From a virus: a stretch of DNA of 64,000 nucleotides. Shown in pieces: positions 9,358-32,966 of the stretch. Positions within the stretch are counted from its first letter, which is position 1. Every line of letters begins with the position of its first letter. The stretch is taken from positions 1 to 64,000 of the IMG/VR virus record IMGVR_UViG_3300026097_001139; one strand, written 5' to 3'. Below the pieces are notes generated by a model, which worked only from the letters and a program-made list of their open reading frames with translations, did not search any database and was not told the origin of the DNA. Position numbers and translations under genes: made by a program.

Positions 9358-10577
9358 ATTTACCGCATGAACAATTTTGCGTGCTACCATGGATAAGTTT
9401 AGAAACAAGTCCTATTGGCACAGTGCGCCCTTGTTGCCTTGCAGAAGATGAAATCAAAGACAACAACGGTGAAAAGTTTGAACTTATTGCCAGCGATCTG
9501 GGAGAAATACAGTGTAGCGATTACATGCAGGATCTGCGACAACAGTTCTTGGATGGTAAACAGCCGCGAACCTGTAGGAAATGCTGGAAAGAAGAACGTG
9601 CAGGACGCACCAGCAAGCGTATGCACACGCTGGATCGGTTAAAACATGTGTTACCAGATCAAGAATGGACAGTTGACGCAAAGCCGTTGATGTTTCTTGA
9701 TCTCAAGCTTGGCAACATTTGCAACCTCAAGTGCAGAATCTGTGGTTCGTGGTCTAGTTCACAGTTTGCCGCTGAAGAACTGCAATTTCACAGAAGGGAA
9801 GAAGGTGATCGAAAAGACAGCTATCATTATGAAATGCTGAAAAAGGGAGCCTGGCCAAAAGAAACAGAAACATTCTGGGATCAATTTGACAGCGTAAGCT
9901 CGGATATCCGCTATATCGAATTCACAGGCGGCGAGCCGTTTATGATCAAAGAACACTTTAGAATACTGCAAAGTTTAGTAGATAAAGGCATTGCTGGCAA
10001 TGTGGAAATACACTACAATACCAATGGTACCATCTACCCCGAAGAAGGCGAAGCTCTGTGGAAACATTTTAAGACTGTAGAAATTGCATTCAGCATAGAT
10101 GATGTAGAAGATCGTTTTGAATATCAACGCAGCAATGCAGAATGGCACACTGTAAACGAAAATATTACCAGGTTCCGCGATCTCAAACATAGATATCCAG
10201 GAAAAATACAATTACAAGTGTGTAGCACAGTAAACGTATTCAACGTCTCTTATCTTGAAACGTTGGCTAATTGGATTGACCAACAAGAGTTTGATTTTGT
10301 GTATTGGAATATGATGCACGAAGCCTACTACTTTAGTATCAGTACATTGCCCAGTCGTGCAAAATATGAAATTGAACAAAGACTGCGCAGTGCACAGGTT
10401 AGCTCCAAGCACAAACAAGAGTTTGAAAATATCATAGATTTTATGAACGGCGGACCAAGTCATGATGGACAGATTCTCAGAATGAAAGTGAGAGACCTGG
10501 ATTTCAAACGCAGTCAGGACCTGAGAACGCATCACAGTGAACTAGCAGAGTGGATTGAATACGAGGGCGTACAGTGA
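9354..10577 (+). CDS. Radical SAM protein with N-terminal twitch-like domain
   Basis: CVLPW..PCC..CRKC; CNLKCRIC; TGGEPF; start placed at the ATGA overlap 9354. Confidence 0.92.
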   Translation: MNLPHEQFCVLPWISLETSPIGTVRPCCLAEDEIKDNNGEKFELIASDLGEIQCSDYMQDLRQQFLDGKQPRTCRKCWKEERAGRTSKRMHTLDRLKHVLPDQEWTVDAKPLMFLDLKLGNICNLKCRICGSWSSSQFAAEELQFHRREEGDRKDSYHYEMLKKGAWPKETETFWDQFDSVSSDIRYIEFTGGEPFMIKEHFRILQSLVDKGIAGNVEIHYNTNGTIYPEEGEALWKHFKTVEIAFSIDDVEDRFEYQRSNAEWHTVNENITRFRDLKHRYPGKIQLQVCSTVNVFNVSYLETLANWIDQQEFDFVYWNMMHEAYYFSISTLPSRAKYEIEQRLRSAQVSSKHKQEFENIIDFMNGGPSHDGQILRMKVRDLDFKRSQDLRTHHSELAEWIEYEGVQ

Positions 10578-26187: not shown

Positions 26188-27447
26188 TTACTGTGATTCG
26201 TATTTGGCCCAAGTGCCAAAAGGAGGCTGTGGATCATCGTTGCTGTGAATAATCCAAACAGTATCGCAGTAGTTTGGATCTCCCCAGCTACCAAATGGAT
26301 ATCCGTCTGTGAACACCACCAGTTTTTTAGGTTCAATGTCTGCTTCCTTGAGATAGTTGAATATACACTCAAAACTAGTGCCACCCCATCCCTGACACTG
26401 ATACTCGGTGATGTCTGCGATGTTATCACTGTTGAAGTCTTGTGGATTGTAAACTTCTGTGTCAAAAGTAAACAAGTGAATTCTATAGTCAGTGAACGTA
26501 TCCATAATGCCTTGCACTTCGCTCAAGAAGTCACGGCCTTGTTCCTCAGAGATACTGCCGCTCATGTCAATTGCTACAGCAATATCAATAGCATCTGTGG
26601 TATCCATGCCTGGTAAAATAGCATCCATATGCCAACTGCGACGACTAACCTTTGAAAATGTGTAATCGTTCTTGATAATGCTTTGCAACTGCTGTTGTAA
26701 CAATTCACGCCAATTCATTTTAGGTTCAGTGAGATTCTGAATCATGCGTTGAACGTTGCCTGGAATTTCACCTGCCTTGGCAGTTTGAGCGGCACTGATC
26801 ATTGCTTCTTTGATTTCGTCTTTGATCTGTTGCCGTTCTTCTTCAGTGAGCTTAACAGGACCGGGCTTGTCGCCTTCCCCTTCTTCACCATTGCCAGCAC
26901 CTTCCATGATGTCTTCTAAGTGTTCATCTAACACTTTGTCTAACATTTTTTGTGCAGATGATTCGTCTGCATTTTCCAGCAAATCGTCGTATACTTGCTC
27001 AAAACTCCAATCTTCGTACTTGGCATCATACAAGCACTCTACAGTGGTAATAAATTCACCTACATTGTGTTTTTTAAGGTCACTGTTAACACAGTAGTCT
27101 TGTGCAATGTTGCTTAACATCCTGTCGCGGTCGCCTGTGCGAGCTAAGTGATCATATACTACATGTAGAACTTCGTGGCCGAATAAAAACTCGACTTCAC
27201 GCGGCTTAAGCATTTTGATAAATCTTGTATTGTAATAAAAGTGACGACCATCAGTAGCGGCAGTAGGGCACCATTCATCGGCATTTACCAGCTTGAGTCG
27301 GGTAGCAAGATTGCCAAAAAAGCTTGCACGGAGGAGCATGCCAATTCGTGCGCCTACAAGTATTTCTCGAACTTCTCTGTCCAGTGCTGGATCAGTAGGT
27401 CCGATGAGATCGGCAAATTTATTTTTGTCTTCTGCGGTTGTCGACAT
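26188..27447 (-). CDS. Metallopeptidase-like (HExxH) + VWA domain protein (DUF2201-like; MoxR partner)
   Basis: TAATDG, HEVLH, DMSGS MIDAS, GGTSF, FTDG. Confidence 0.88.
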   Translation of the reverse strand: MSTTAEDKNKFADLIGPTDPALDREVREILVGARIGMLLRASFFGNLATRLKLVNADEWCPTAATDGRHFYYNTRFIKMLKPREVEFLFGHEVLHVVYDHLARTGDRDRMLSNIAQDYCVNSDLKKHNVGEFITTVECLYDAKYEDWSFEQVYDDLLENADESSAQKMLDKVLDEHLEDIMEGAGNGEEGEGDKPGPVKLTEEERQQIKDEIKEAMISAAQTAKAGEIPGNVQRMIQNLTEPKMNWRELLQQQLQSIIKNDYTFSKVSRRSWHMDAILPGMDTTDAIDIAVAIDMSGSISEEQGRDFLSEVQGIMDTFTDYRIHLFTFDTEVYNPQDFNSDNIADITEYQCQGWGGTSFECIFNYLKEADIEPKKLVVFTDGYPFGSWGDPNYCDTVWIIHSNDDPQPPFGTWAKYESQ

Positions 27448-27522: not shown

Positions 27523-27879
27523 TTATCCACATGCCAGTCTAAATAAACTTAATTCTCTATCACTGGCAATATAAATTCTCAAATCTCTGTAAGCATTGCT
27601 CCAGCTCCAGTGATTATTGACTGCCAGGGGCAGTGAGTTATCAAAATTTCCCGGACCTTGTGGTAGATTAAATTGATTACGCATAGAATAATGTGTTTTT
27701 ATTTCTTGCCATATTCGAATTTCGGCACTAAATCCGTAGGTATCAATAAACCATTGTTGAGCTTCTATAAAATGTAAAGGACCTTGATTTATTGTAATTC
27801 TAGCAGGAAAACTTATATGATATTTAAACCATTCAAAATAGTTAAACCTTTTATCAAGGCGTTGCACAGTGTATTTCAC
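27523..27879 (-). CDS. Hypothetical protein
   Basis: 118-aa ORF, AGGA SD, GTG start. Confidence 0.65.
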   Translation of the reverse strand: MKYTVQRLDKRFNYFEWFKYHISFPARITINQGPLHFIEAQQWFIDTYGFSAEIRIWQEIKTHYSMRNQFNLPQGPGNFDNSLPLAVNNHWSWSNAYRDLRIYIASDRELSLFRLACG

Positions 27880-27899
27880 GGTCTAGTCCTAAATATTGT

Positions 27900-28193
27900 T
27901 TAATATTTAAGCTGAAACAGTACCGCGTCATGTGCGCACTTAAAGACAAATCGTACTCGCCATTCCGGTGTTTGAGTGTAGTTGTTGTACACAGCTACAC
28001 TGTTCCACCACCAGCGTTTTCCTTTGGTACCAAACTCCTGGCGAATCTTCCATAAATTTTTTTTCAGTAGTTCGTCATTGTTGTTATAATAACGTTCAAC
28101 TGCTGGCAGTGTGCTGTCTTTCCACTCGTCTGGCGTTATAGTTAGTGATCTATTATTGTCCACTATTCCCATGGGAAATCGCCATCTTGCCAT
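27900..28193 (-). CDS. Hypothetical protein
   Basis: ORF; C-terminus F..AHDAVLFQLKY resembles that of 27523..27879; start uncertain. Confidence 0.6.
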   Translation of the reverse strand: MARWRFPMGIVDNNRSLTITPDEWKDSTLPAVERYYNNNDELLKKNLWKIRQEFGTKGKRWWWNSVAVYNNYTQTPEWRVRFVFKCAHDAVLFQLKY

Positions 28194-29290
28194 ACAGCAT
28201 ATTTGTAATATTCATTTACCGTTTGTATATCGTCTGTAGTTTCTATACACAATTCTTCGTTGGCAAAAAATAATTTCATGTTATTTTCTATTGCAAAATT
28301 GCATAAAAATTCCCTGCGATCTTGGTCTTCTGGCAGTGCAAAAATACTCAACATTATTATACCGTCAAATCTTTTAGTTATAAAGTTTTCAAGTCCCGGA
28401 AGCCAATCTATAAACAATGGTTCGTGAATTTGTTGTGGTAAAAAATCAACGCTTGCATCTGATAGATCAAACTTTCTTGAATATGAATCTATAAAAGCTC
28501 TTTGCATGCCGAAAGGAATGTGTTTGGTAAATGCAGTACTGCGATTCAAGTAAACCAATAAATTAGAATTTTTGTCAATTTGTTTGCGTTGAGAATAGTC
28601 CCCGGGCAATCTAAAATACCCGCCAGGTACTCTTTGGAATGTTTCGTGACCTCTTATTAAGAATCTTGCATCGAAACTAAAACGAGTCTTTTGTGTAGTG
28701 TTGTTAATAGATCCGTGAACCCTTTCTTGATCAAATAACAAAAATTCTCCCGGACTTAAACACTTGTTCTTTGATAATTTATAGCATTCTTCGTCGAATT
28801 TTTTTGCAGGCCACCGGTTTTCTATAAATTTTGATACTAGATCTCTACTAGGATCTAGATCTGCAATATAAAGTGAATTTGAATCGTACGCATCTGTAAG
28901 AGGTATCCAAGCAGTCATACTGCCTCGTCCACCGCCTACAAGTGCGTCGCAGTGGAAATTAACACGCTGTCCGTGTGCTTCTTGACCAGGAATGACTACC
29001 CTTAGATTAGGTTGCCGTTGTACTAGATAATCGGTATGTTCAATTAAAGGTGCTACGTTATCGGCAAAAAACTTATCCAGCATGCTCATGTATTTTGTGC
29101 ATTTACTGGTTTTATCTTGCACATATCTGGCTACTTGTGCAATCTCTTTTACTGACAAGACTTTGTGTATAGTACTTAGATCAGATACATTGGGCCACTT
29201 TTGTTGAATTGTGTCGAGTGTCCAAGTGGTAAAATCCAATTTTGCTGTATCATAAGACCCAACAAAGTCTTGCGGGATATTATAAATCAT
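28163..29290 (-). CDS. Fe(II)/2OG oxygenase (H-C-D..H) fused to a resolvase-like domain; paralog of 18171..19295
   Basis: FHCD..WIPLT..VHGSINN..TRFSFDAR; collinear with its paralog along the full length. Confidence 0.75.
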   Translation of the reverse strand: MIYNIPQDFVGSYDTAKLDFTTWTLDTIQQKWPNVSDLSTIHKVLSVKEIAQVARYVQDKTSKCTKYMSMLDKFFADNVAPLIEHTDYLVQRQPNLRVVIPGQEAHGQRVNFHCDALVGGGRGSMTAWIPLTDAYDSNSLYIADLDPSRDLVSKFIENRWPAKKFDEECYKLSKNKCLSPGEFLLFDQERVHGSINNTTQKTRFSFDARFLIRGHETFQRVPGGYFRLPGDYSQRKQIDKNSNLLVYLNRSTAFTKHIPFGMQRAFIDSYSRKFDLSDASVDFLPQQIHEPLFIDWLPGLENFITKRFDGIIMLSIFALPEDQDRREFLCNFAIENNMKLFFANEELCIETTDDIQTVNEYYKYAVWQDGDFPWE

Positions 29291-29299
29291 TGGAACTCC

Positions 29300-29355
29300 A
29301 AAAAAAACAGGGCTGGTCCAACATACGCCCTATGTTATTTACCGGACCAGCCCTG
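29300..29355 (-). terminator. Intrinsic terminator downstream of the MoxR gene with a large structured loop
   Basis: 12-bp perfect stem CAGGGCTGGTCC/GGACCAGCCCTG followed by T8 on the minus strand. Confidence 0.85.
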
Positions 29356-29361
29356 ACCTGG

Positions 29362-30462
29362 TTACGATTCGTTTGCGGCTAAAATGTATTTGCCGTAACG
29401 TTCGTGAAACTCGTCGAAGTTTTTAAGTTTGGTAGGTTGAACAGGAAGTTGATAGTTGTTAAGAGCAACTCGGGCACCCATAACAACCAATTCAGTTTCG
29501 AAGTTATCCATCATAAAGCGGAAGAACAGGTCGGCCATTTTGTGGAACTGTTTGTCGTCTACACTGTCGCTGTCGATAGCTTCGCGCAGTTCATAGCACA
29601 TGGCAATAACTAAGCTGTACATTGCGCTAATCTCATTGATCTCCAGTGTTTTAACCTTGCCGGCTAAAATATCAGTAGGGTTAGGCATTTGGCTTGCGAC
29701 CTTGCGATGTGCCATAAACTTCACAGCAAGACCTTCGCCTACAGTACCGGCAATGAGATCAGTGAGGCTTTGCTCATCAAGATCGTTGTCTTCAATCAGC
29801 TCACTTACAAAGGTCCACGAACGTGGCGTAGCAAATGCTCTGCTGGCTGCTTTTGCGTCAAAATCATAGAGATCTTGTTTAGCAAACGAAACGTAACCAA
29901 TTACGTCTTTGTGAATGCCATTTTCGGTGGCCCAGTCTAGCCAGTTGGTATAATCCACGCGCATTTCCACGTGTACAAAGCGATTGGCAAGCGGTGTAGG
30001 CATGCGATATGTTACGCCTTTGTCGCTTTCGCGGTTGCCAGCGGCTACCACTACTACATTATCTGGCAACTTGTATTGTCCAATGCGACGGTTGAGAATC
30101 AACTGATATGCAGCGGCCTGTACACTGGGCGCAGCTACGTTCATTTCGTCTAAGAATAATACAACAACTGGATATTGACTGGCTAGCTCTTCTGTTGGAA
30201 GATCCACTGGCGGAGCCCATTCCATTTTGCCAGACTCTTTGCTGTAATAAGGCATGCCTCGCACATCAGTTGGATCCATTAGACCCAAACGTAGATCAAG
30301 AAGCAGACCACCTGATTCACTAGCAATGTCTTCTACAAGTTCTGATTTACCAATACCTGGAGGACCCCAGAGAAAGATAGGACGCTTTTTAGCAAAGCAT
30401 TTTTTGATAAGTTTGCGAGCACCAGTACTGGTGACACTGCGATGTTCTGTTGCGGTGGACAT
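29362..30462 (-). CDS. MoxR-like AAA+ ATPase
   Basis: Walker A GPPGIGKS, Walker B LFLDE, AAGNR, LANRF, TPRSW. Confidence 0.9.
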   Translation of the reverse strand: MSTATEHRSVTSTGARKLIKKCFAKKRPIFLWGPPGIGKSELVEDIASESGGLLLDLRLGLMDPTDVRGMPYYSKESGKMEWAPPVDLPTEELASQYPVVVLFLDEMNVAAPSVQAAAYQLILNRRIGQYKLPDNVVVVAAGNRESDKGVTYRMPTPLANRFVHVEMRVDYTNWLDWATENGIHKDVIGYVSFAKQDLYDFDAKAASRAFATPRSWTFVSELIEDNDLDEQSLTDLIAGTVGEGLAVKFMAHRKVASQMPNPTDILAGKVKTLEINEISAMYSLVIAMCYELREAIDSDSVDDKQFHKMADLFFRFMMDNFETELVVMGARVALNNYQLPVQPTKLKNFDEFHERYGKYILAANES

Positions 30463-30494
30463 AGGGCGTATCCTTTTTTAGTGAATGTACAATT

Positions 30495-30523
30495 ATAATA
30501 GTTGATTACGCCCTTCGTGTCAA
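30495..30523 (-). promoter_or_regulatory. Sigma70-type (early) promoter
   Basis: TTGACA-N17-TATTAT. Confidence 0.85.
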
Positions 30524-30524
30524 C

Positions 30525-32966
30525 CTATAGTAACAAATATTCTGCTACAGTGTCACTTATGTTGCGCATGTATATCCAACGTGGATTGATAGGTTGATCT
30601 TTGCGCACTCGTAGTTTTCCTAACAAACCAATTGGAGCCCATTCCTGTCTTTTACTGCGAGGTGTGTATTCTACCTCAGGATCATAGTTAGGATTGACCT
30701 TTGGTGTCTGAAATGGTCTTCCGTCTTCGTCGTGGGTGGTTGCTGTGGCACCTTCAGGGATTTCCACGTCGTCTAAACTGGTTGCAGTTTGCTCTACTTG
30801 CTTGCCTTTCACAGTTTCTTTCCAGGAATATATGGTGTATTCTTGCATCACAGGACGACCAAAATCATCTGTGAGATACTTGCCTTGCCAGCTGTTTTCA
30901 GGTGCGTCACCTAGCACTCCTGGTACTGCACTTACTACACCAATTGGAGTCTCGTCTGATTGTGCAAGTCTGATTTTGTTAGCCTCTAGCACCACAGACA
31001 TGCCAACTCTGTCCTCATCATCAGGATTGCCGTCGACCCATTCGAAAAATTCTGCATAGTCGCCGGCTGGTGTTGCCGCTACGCCGTCAAAACGCACATT
31101 CCCGCCGCTGTCTACCTGAAATACTGGATCTTGCGTAGGGCTGAATGCATCACTGTATGCACGGAAATGAATGTAAGGTTTACCTTTTAGTGCACCCACT
31201 TCGCTCTGCACGGCTGCACCGGTAAAGTTTGCATTAAGTGCCTGTGCTCTAACACCAACACCGAATCCTGTTGTGCTTGCATTGGTAGCACCTAGCACAG
31301 CACTACCGCCAATGGCGCCTGCTCCATAGTCGTATGAAGCAAATACACTGCCTGCTGCAGGAACTGGTGTTTGATCTGAGTCGCCATTGATACCCAAAGA
31401 TTCTTTATAAAAGCGTATACTATCTACATCGTCTTCAAAAGCAACTGCAATGTAAGGTTGATTTTCTGCTGGATTACTATCGTACCAGAAGCCGTTGTCT
31501 TCCGGGTAGGTAAATCTGTATGCACCGGCAACAATGTTGTCAACGCCAGTAAATGTTTTTCTGCCAGTAACAGTTTGTTCATCGGCTAACACCATGTCGC
31601 CGTCGCCACCGCCACCACCGCCAGTGGCACTGATGGTTACATCTCCAGTGGCACTGGATACACTTATACCTGAGCCTGCATTGATACTGGTTACGCCACT
31701 GCCAGTGGCACTGATGGTTACTGTGCCGCCGCTTTCTGATACGTCAATGCCTGATCCTGCATTGATGCCAAGCACCCCGGTGTTTGTTACTGTGATAGTA
31801 CCTGACCCTGTAATTGGCGAGCCTGACACCGAAATTCCAGCACCTCCGGCTACTCCTACACTGCTCACAGTGCCGTCTCCTGTTCCGCCGGTATAGCCAA
31901 TGGAAATAGCCCCTGCAGAGTTTGTCACAGATATACTGCCTGAACCTGATATAGTGCCTTTGCTTAGTCCGCCGTTGTCACCTATCAGTAACTGTCCGTT
32001 GCCGTACACTGTTTCGCCAGTGCCACCGTTTGTCACTGCTACAATGCCGTTGACATTGTTGGCAATGCCAGCCAAATTGGCTGTGATAACATTGGCATTG
32101 AAACTGCCTGCTGAATCTCTTGCAACCACAGTGTTTGCAAGGTTGCTGTCACTGGCATTCACGCTCCAGGTTTGCGCAGTGTTGGCGTTGTATACATTGC
32201 CGCTGATATAACTGCCAGGCGTTAAAGCATTTTCCAGTGTGCCCAAGATGCTTGCATCGCTGGCATAGGTCATGCCCTTTACAAGTTCTGTAAAACCAGT
32301 TGGACGATCCTCTGGAAGAATTATGAAATCTCTCTTGGCAACAACAGCTATAACAATGTTGTTAACCTTGCCAAGAATCACTGGCTCTGGATCTCCGTTG
32401 AGATCTCTTAGACTGGCACTTTCCCACAGTGTTCCCGGAAATCCAGTGGCAGCCGGAGGACCAATCAAGGACCAACTTGCACCGTCGCTGATGAAAAGCT
32501 GTTGTGATGTTTCATTGAAATAGAAGTCACCAGCCAGTCCAGCATCCGGGGCACTGGTTACAAAAGGCACACGATTATTTGTGATCCACTCTAATCCTCG
32601 GTCTGTCTCTGCGTATACCTTGACTTGAAAATTCACAGTGTCTAGCCATAACTCTCCAACCTTGGCTTCGACACTAGGAGCTGTGTTGCTCACATACAAC
32701 CCGCTGACGTTTTTCCATTGAACACCTGTGTAGGTCTTTATGCATCCGTCTGATGTGTCATACCAGATTTGTCCTTCCAATGGATTTTCTGGGCTGTTTG
32801 CGTCAGCAAAGTTTTCTAAATGCTTTACAAGATTCTCAGTTTCGATTTCGCCGTAGGGTGTGACATTTTTTCCTACTAGGCTTAAACTGGTAGCTTCTGT
32901 ATCGGTAGTACCGTCCGGAATGACAGCAACTATTTCTCCGCGAGTGTTATTAATGATATATGGCAT
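30525..32966 (-). CDS. Tail fibre/virion protein with C-terminal peptidase G2 (intramolecular chaperone) domain
   Basis: N-terminal LENFA..P..GQIWYD; G/S/T-rich 27-aa repeats; C-terminal DYAEFFEW.DGNP..EDR.G..YTPRSKRQEW..IGLLGKL; CTAAATA box upstream. Confidence 0.8.
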   Translation of the reverse strand: MPYIINNTRGEIVAVIPDGTTDTEATSLSLVGKNVTPYGEIETENLVKHLENFADANSPENPLEGQIWYDTSDGCIKTYTGVQWKNVSGLYVSNTAPSVEAKVGELWLDTVNFQVKVYAETDRGLEWITNNRVPFVTSAPDAGLAGDFYFNETSQQLFISDGASWSLIGPPAATGFPGTLWESASLRDLNGDPEPVILGKVNNIVIAVVAKRDFIILPEDRPTGFTELVKGMTYASDASILGTLENALTPGSYISGNVYNANTAQTWSVNASDSNLANTVVARDSAGSFNANVITANLAGIANNVNGIVAVTNGGTGETVYGNGQLLIGDNGGLSKGTISGSGSISVTNSAGAISIGYTGGTGDGTVSSVGVAGGAGISVSGSPITGSGTITVTNTGVLGINAGSGIDVSESGGTVTISATGSGVTSINAGSGISVSSATGDVTISATGGGGGGDGDMVLADEQTVTGRKTFTGVDNIVAGAYRFTYPEDNGFWYDSNPAENQPYIAVAFEDDVDSIRFYKESLGINGDSDQTPVPAAGSVFASYDYGAGAIGGSAVLGATNASTTGFGVGVRAQALNANFTGAAVQSEVGALKGKPYIHFRAYSDAFSPTQDPVFQVDSGGNVRFDGVAATPAGDYAEFFEWVDGNPDDEDRVGMSVVLEANKIRLAQSDETPIGVVSAVPGVLGDAPENSWQGKYLTDDFGRPVMQEYTIYSWKETVKGKQVEQTATSLDDVEIPEGATATTHDEDGRPFQTPKVNPNYDPEVEYTPRSKRQEWAPIGLLGKLRVRKDQPINPRWIYMRNISDTVAEYLLL

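Follow-up and report, generated by a model that had tools for sequence, protein, structure and literature searches.

A phage ATPase gene ends in a terminator hairpin whose loop is complementary to the gene's own translation start, a complementarity kept with changed sequences in about half of related loci

In an uncultured jumbo phage, the mRNA of a MoxR-like AAA+ ATPase gene carries, at the top of its predicted terminator hairpin, a 13-nt element that is the exact reverse complement of the gene's own ribosome-binding and start region, and 114 of 241 distinct orthologous loci (47%) keep at least 8 nt of such complementarity with many different sequences, which suggests that the finished mRNA most likely represses its own translation by base pairing. 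The window (the whole 64,000-nt stretch of DNA that was analysed, positions 1 to 64,000 of the IMG/VR record IMGVR_UViG_3300026097_001139) belongs to an 88-kb record estimated to be about 25% complete. A near-identity DNA search of the phage collection found nothing, and the nearest named relative of the gene in question is Pseudomonas phage PA5oct, at 49% protein identity. All genes around the element are on the minus strand, namely an 813-aa Peptidase_G2-domain protein (30525..32966), the 366-aa ATPase (29362..30462), a PhyH/2OG-oxygenase-like protein (28163..29290), two small ORFs, and a DUF2201 VWA/metallopeptidase-like protein (26188..27447), the last being a VWA-domain partner gene near the ATPase. 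In Pfam searches, the ATPase passed for AAA (32 bits) and AAA_5 (23.9 bits against a cut-off of 22) and scored 25.6 bits for AAA_3 (MoxR) against a cut-off of 27; it belongs to PHROG 1297, and its closest solved structures are midasin AAA modules, so that "MoxR-like" is the safe name. The features of the locus are as follows.

30495..30523, minus strand: predicted sigma-70-type promoter of the ATPase gene, TTGACA (30523-30518), 17-nt spacer, TATTAT (30500-30495), with an inferred transcription start near 30488 and hence a 5' UTR of about 26 nt
30459..30475, minus strand: translation initiation region, with the ribosome-binding site AAGGA (30475-30471), the spacer UACGCCCU and AUG (30462-30460); the 13-nt target AUACGCCCUAUGU is 30471-30459
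29362..30462, minus strand: 366-aa AAA+ ATPase of the MoxR/midasin-like (AAA_5) group, PHROG 1297 'ATPase'
29308..29355, minus strand: predicted terminator hairpin, with outer stem arms at 29344-29355 and 29308-29319 (12 bp), the 5' bulge GGUAAAU at 29337-29343, and an inner hairpin at 29320-29336 with the apical loop GGGCG (29326-29330)
29323..29335, minus strand: element antisense to the start region (ACAUAGGGCGUAU on the mRNA), comprising the 5' arm, the apical loop and 3 nt of the 3' arm of the inner hairpin
29300..29307, minus strand: U8 tract of the predicted intrinsic terminator
30507..30514, plus strand: third, 8-nt copy (AGGGCGUA in mRNA sense) inside the promoter spacer, probably chance or private to this lineage
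28163..29290, minus strand: downstream PhyH/2OG-oxygenase-like gene, whose GGAG follows the U8 tract directly and whose ATG lies 9 nt after that tract, leaving no room for its own promoter

The observation underlying the original prediction proved correct. The plus strand at 29323-29335 reads ATACGCCCTATGT, and the only other match in the window, even with up to 2 mismatches, is 30459-30471 on the minus strand, where it runs from the last base of the ribosome-binding site through the 8-nt spacer and AUG to the first base of codon 2. The downstream copy lies in a hairpin with a 12-bp outer stem (9 G-C pairs), a 7-nt bulge on the 5' side, an inner stem AACAUA/UAUGUU of 5-6 bp and the apical loop GGGCG, followed directly by U8, for which RNAfold gave -30 kcal/mol (z = -4.25 against shuffles); a simple terminator scanner missed this hairpin only because its loop limit is 8 nt. 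The promoter matched 11 of 12 consensus positions and was the best in the region, and relatives carry the same TTGAC-N17-TAnAAT layout. We estimated that a 13-nt perfect antisense match between a 35-nt start window and a 90-nt 3'UTR has a chance of about 23 x 78 / 4^13, roughly 3e-5 per gene. When each start region (-25..+10) of the 120 ORFs of the 88-kb record was compared with its own 90-nt 3' flank, this gene was the single outlier (13 nt), the next best values being 10 and then 8. A search of Rfam covariance models returned no hit at E up to 1 in 29200-30600, and among sequencing runs no RNA run was found to contain the sequence, only one soil DNA run that is probably the source sample.

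To determine whether the complementarity is maintained in related phages, a check that had been set in advance, we collected orthologous loci by three IMG/VR scans, using the window's protein and two divergent orthologues as queries, and by one metagenome scan, which together gave 241 loci with distinct leader/3'UTR sequences at 65-75% protein identity to the window. At least 8 nt of perfect antisense between leader and 3'UTR was present in 114 loci and at least 10 nt in 47, whereas leaders paired with 3'UTRs of other loci reached at least 8 nt in only 8.6% and at least 10 nt in 1.2% of pairs. The observed mean (7.46 nt, compared to 5.85 nt for foreign pairs) lay 22.9 standard deviations above 2000 permutations, although the sequences are related to one another and the locus counts therefore overstate the number of independent events. 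In the first set of 74 loci, shuffled 3'UTRs reached 8 nt in 3.9% and ORF-internal windows in 3.4%, while direct (same-sense) matches reached 8% and reversed matches 1.4%. About half of the orthologous loci lack a match of 8 nt or more, so the feature is dispensable. The metagenome scan found no relative closer than 75% protein identity, so the window's own CGCCC version remains a single example. Nine cultured phages with homologous ATPases (PA5oct, Phosso, Atu_ph07, inbricus, PAP02, JES2013, PBECO4, ECBP1 and D505; N4-like and rV5-like relatives are among the cultured phages lacking it) had plain terminators or operon junctions and only background matches of 5-9 nt, with the gene in most of them sitting inside a tight operon, and the feature is therefore confined to this uncultured clade.

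The matching words are not one conserved motif. They fall into 21 families that share no 6-mer, about ten of which are present in two or more loci, and all target positions -25 to +10. The largest class has ACACAGCC(C) immediately before AUG, opposite GGGCUGUGU in an ACACA-GGGC-UGUGU inner hairpin, and a GGGCUGUGUU version recorded in a different genome agrees with this class, although this is not independent proof; together with the next class, AGCCCUAUGUC opposite GACAUAGGGCU, and the window's own AUACGCCCUAUGU, it forms one 48-locus family. Other examples are AGACUCUCACAU opposite AUGUGAGAGUCU, GAAAGGAGUA (the ribosome-binding site itself) opposite UACUCCUUUC, AAUGUCUC (start codon and codon 2) opposite GAGACAUU, GUCCGUGA (codons 2-3) opposite UCACGGAC, and a two-part form, AGGAGCUU plus UGUCUC, with AGCUCC directly after the stop codon against the ribosome-binding site and GAGACA in the terminator loop against the start codon. 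The outer stems differ freely while the loop word tracks the leader. On a quick maximum-likelihood tree of the ATPase (IQ-TREE), the classes corresponded to clades, and several lineages inside the ACACAGCC clade that have replaced the hairpin with a plain GC stem-loop also lack the leader word (for example the orthologous loci L013 and L028, sisters of L018), which looks like joint loss.

We next examined covariation in the 24 distinct loci that share the GCC/GGC core. Position -6 of the duplex was A:U in 5 loci, G:C in 9 and G:U in 6, that is, a change from A:U to G:C through G:U. The window differs from the main class at three consecutive pairs with both sides changed, and the extra G in its apical loop is matched by an extra C in its leader, while two further loci, L260 and L304, carry CAUAGCCC opposite GGGCUAUG, where the main class has CACAGCCC opposite GGGCUGUG. 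The register also moves: in the window and the AGCCCUAUGUC class the leader pairs with the 5' arm of the inner hairpin and covers AUG, whereas in the ACACAGCC class it pairs with the 3' arm and covers the spacer and part of the ribosome-binding site, with the GGGC:GCCC core staying fixed. A comparison of G:U against A:C, intended to reveal sense-strand RNA pairing, was only suggestive, with 15 against 4 inside the helix but 12 against 34 at helix borders, where the outer stem confounds the count and makes it unusable. Collectively, these data support a selected RNA-RNA pairing. An explanation at the DNA level, in which the two copies are inverted binding sites for a DNA-binding regulator or recombinase flanking the gene, or a relic of an inverted duplication, appears very unlikely. 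An inverted repeat is indeed the same site for a protein that binds double-stranded DNA, and in the window a third copy lies in the promoter spacer; however, at least ten unrelated sequences would each need a co-evolving protein, the target is always the translation start and not the promoter, the partner lies in a hairpin loop (apart from the unstructured cases given below), the two-part cases have their modules in non-mirrored order and so are not one inverted DNA duplication, and the third copy is not conserved. In all 241 loci the gene had a leader 5' and a hairpin region 3' in the same layout; orientation relative to flanking genes did not enter this comparison.

Of the first 80 loci with at least 8 nt, 40 had the element enclosed by the stem that precedes the U tract, 25 had no run of four or more U after the element (by inspection, about 20 of these sit in equivalent hairpins), 13 had it unstructured directly after the stop codon, and 2 had it enclosed by another hairpin. 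Folding of the full 1.19-kb transcript with RNAfold gave inconsistent pairing probabilities (0 to 0.88), since pairing between a loop and a leader alongside an intact stem is a pseudoknot that nested folding programs cannot represent. We therefore used duplex energy plus the cost of opening both sites, which gave an estimated net of -13.9 kcal/mol for the window and -4 to -14 kcal/mol across classes, comparable with working small RNA-mRNA pairs. A 13-bp helix inside a 24-nt loop leaves only 3 nt on the 3' side in the window, and full pairing together with a fully closed outer stem may therefore be strained.

The interpretation offered in the original prediction was partly supported. It had proposed a compact switch in which the loop acts as antisense to the gene's own start, by 3'-to-5' fold-back or in trans, a GTAAATA box in the hairpin launches a late transcript that begins with the antisense stretch, lacks the left stem arm and reads into the 2OG-oxygenase gene, and a further copy lies in the promoter spacer. 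The first of these is strongly supported by the comparative data, while the other two are not supported. The third copy is real in the window (4 copies of the 8-nt word in 64 kb against 0.59 expected, a fourth TACGCCCT lying at 10564-10571), but only 2 of 172 loci had an 8-nt upstream antisense copy, against 3 in the reversed control. The GTAAATA word is likewise present at 29336-29342, a start 6-8 nt downstream would put the antisense seed at a free 5' end, and the downstream gene needs some source of transcription. However, GTAAATA matches only 6 of the 8 bases of the T4 late box, no T4-type late transcription machinery was identified here, TATAAATA occurs twice in 88 kb where about 10 are expected, and TAAATA is under-represented (52 against about 113), with neither placed consistently before genes. 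TAAATA sits in the hairpin bulge only in the window and in about ten loci of the ACACAGCC class and is absent from the other classes, so that the three-way switch with a loop-embedded late promoter seems improbable.

We favour, with a probability of roughly 0.65, translational self-repression by this pairing, in cis or in trans. In this view, the ATPase gene is a single-gene transcription unit with a consensus early promoter, a short 5' UTR, the ORF and an intrinsic terminator, and once RNA polymerase has transcribed the 3' end, about 1.1 kb after the start, the element could pair with the start region of the same molecule (fold-back, a pseudoknot-type contact) or of sister molecules. In the window's sequence class, pairing would begin between the exposed GGGC(G) apical loop and GCCC just 5' of AUG and would spread by displacing one arm of the small inner hairpin; because the inner hairpin is a near-palindrome, the leader is almost a copy of one arm, and loop docking followed by strand displacement is therefore the natural, although inferred, pathway. 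Pairing would occlude the 30S binding site, so that translation would be limited mainly to the period before the 3' end exists, or would fall as transcripts accumulate and their 3' ends titrate new start sites, and the untranslated mRNA would probably also decay faster. The analysis itself establishes the complementarity, its position in the hairpin, its conservation with changed sequences and favourable computed energies, whereas the presence of both ends on one transcript, pairing in vivo, the block of 30S binding with lower protein output (repression rather than activation) and the choice between cis and trans are inferences from sequence alone, the promoter, start and terminator being consensus predictions. 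Precedents exist: 3'UTR pairing with the ribosome-binding site blocks initiation in icaR (PMC3868564), sequences resembling the 16S anti-Shine-Dalgarno tail placed hundreds of nt downstream pair with the ribosome-binding site and repress expression in vivo (PMC12697547), and a terminator loop serves as a pairing site in the small RNA LhrC (PMC4132741).

A less likely alternative is that the pairing is real but mainly serves another purpose, either tying the two mRNA ends together to control decay, by protecting the 5' end or creating a double-strand cleavage site, or stiffening the loop so that the terminator closes less well and polymerase reads through into the promoter-less downstream gene. 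In most loci the downstream gene starts 9-20 nt after the hairpin and has no visible promoter, and the 25 hairpins lacking a run of four or more U imply that read-through must be common; in addition, the hbs mRNA uses a 5'/3'-UTR interaction to control ribonuclease action (PMC5737220), and icaR pairing also creates an RNase III site. On the other hand, the target is always the ribosome-binding site, spacer or start codon (or the first codons) and not the extreme 5' end, the downstream gene differs between clades while the ATPase partner stays the same, the pairing does not touch the outer stem arms that drive termination, and duplexes of 8-13 bp are short for RNase III. A more speculative version of self-repression, which we consider possible but unlikely, is that the element acts as a built-in completion timer: the mRNA would be translatable only while still being transcribed, and upon emergence of the terminator its GGGC-type apical loop would dock on the GCCC just before AUG, strand-displace the inner hairpin and lock the start site in a pseudoknot with the mRNA's own terminator, so that protein yield per transcript would be set by gene length and polymerase speed rather than by mRNA lifetime. 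If so, this would be an easily evolved design that this phage group has rebuilt with at least ten different sequences.

Documented 5'-3' UTR contacts in bacterial mRNAs are very few (icaR, hok, hbs), and most rest on a single gene, whereas one phage gene family here offers more than 100 natural variants of the same idea, many with changed but still matching sequences, the kind of evidence usually available only for ribosomal RNA or riboswitches. Full-text literature searches found no paper describing this arrangement. If confirmed, it would show that phages use their own terminators as self-directed antisense regulators, that a terminator loop can be a programmable 8-13-nt silencer of the gene it ends, and that long-range masking of the ribosome-binding site, recently shown to be a cost that genomes avoid, can also be used as a regulatory device, in a design compact enough to copy in synthetic gene circuits.

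The element resembles icaR-type 5'-3' UTR pairing and, more loosely, hok fold-back inhibition, but the putative silencer sits in the loop of the gene's own intrinsic terminator, often covers the spacer and AUG rather than the Shine-Dalgarno sequence alone, occurs in phages, and has been rebuilt with many sequences across a gene family. In icaR of Staphylococcus aureus (PMC3868564), a 3'UTR motif pairs with the ribosome-binding region of the same mRNA and blocks formation of the initiation complex, whether in cis or in trans; that motif (UCCCCUG) lies in a long 3'UTR (over 100 nt) rather than in the terminator loop, pairs with the Shine-Dalgarno sequence only, and concerns one gene in one genus, whereas the present element is supported by many changed-sequence versions but by no experiment. 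In hok mRNA of plasmid R1 (tac/fbi; PMC9841398 and references therein), a long-distance contact between the 5' and 3' ends likewise keeps the full-length mRNA translationally silent, but there the 3' end pairs with the extreme 5' end (tac), the ribosome-binding site is masked indirectly, slow 3' trimming activates the mRNA, an antisense RNA (Sok) takes part and the product is a toxin, none of which is evident here: the target is at -9..+4 relative to AUG, about 17 nt from the predicted 5' end, and no antisense gene or second set of alternative pairings was seen at the locus. In LhrC of Listeria (PMC4132741) and small RNAs derived from 3'UTRs, the loop of a Rho-independent terminator is used as an antisense site against a ribosome-binding region, and a stable 3' fragment sharing the mRNA's terminator could act in trans in this way; those RNAs act on other genes, however, while here the best and only conserved target is the gene's own start region and no separate small transcript is known. 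In T4-type temporal translational control (genes e, soc and I-TevI), an RNA structure also masks the ribosome-binding site in one transcript class, but the T4 mask is a local hairpin whose 5' arm is missing from transcripts started at a late promoter inside it, whereas here the proposed mask lies 1.1 kb away at the 3' end and no late promoter is supported. Finally, work on Bacillus subtilis mRNAs (PMC12697547) shows experimentally that a short sequence complementary to the ribosome-binding site, placed hundreds of nt downstream, pairs with it, lowers translation and speeds decay; there the effect is an accidental cost that genomes avoid, while here the sequence appears to be kept on purpose and is displayed on a hairpin.

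Among the related loci, one clade (L008, L037, L047, L051, L110, L125, L132 and L150) shared a conserved hairpin frame in the 3' flank of the ATPase gene, GG(A/G)GGCAGG ... CCGUAAGUCC(U/C)CC, whatever the loop carried, and the unpaired CA and GUAAGU parts of this frame look like a conserved internal-loop motif. In the window (29288-29307) and in most related loci, the gene after the ATPase starts 9-20 nt after the hairpin, with its own GGAG but no promoter, and 25 of 80 hairpins lack a clean U tract, so substantial read-through or processing at this hairpin is likely. A fourth copy of TACGCCCT in the window was located at 10564-10571 on the minus strand, and was regarded as probably arising by chance. 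In addition, a recurring C-TAAATA-(C/U)C word was observed in or next to promoter spacers (TTGAC-N8/9-TAAATA-CC...) in the regions upstream of 68439-69137, 80417-81148 and 82152-84806 of G000 (the last two lie beyond the window), while relatives often have TTGACAATAAATC, and this word may represent an extended -35/spacer signature of this phage group.

Small ORFs lie between the ATPase and the VWA gene (window 27523-28193 and related loci), and in relatives the gene after the hairpin often begins MKYK(V/I)TK(M/L)D. The DUF2201 VWA/metallopeptidase-like partner of the ATPase (window 26188-27447, minus strand) is labelled 'HNH endonuclease' in PHROG 1314 and in several phage records, whereas Pfam shows no HNH domain, so the label looks like a propagated misannotation.
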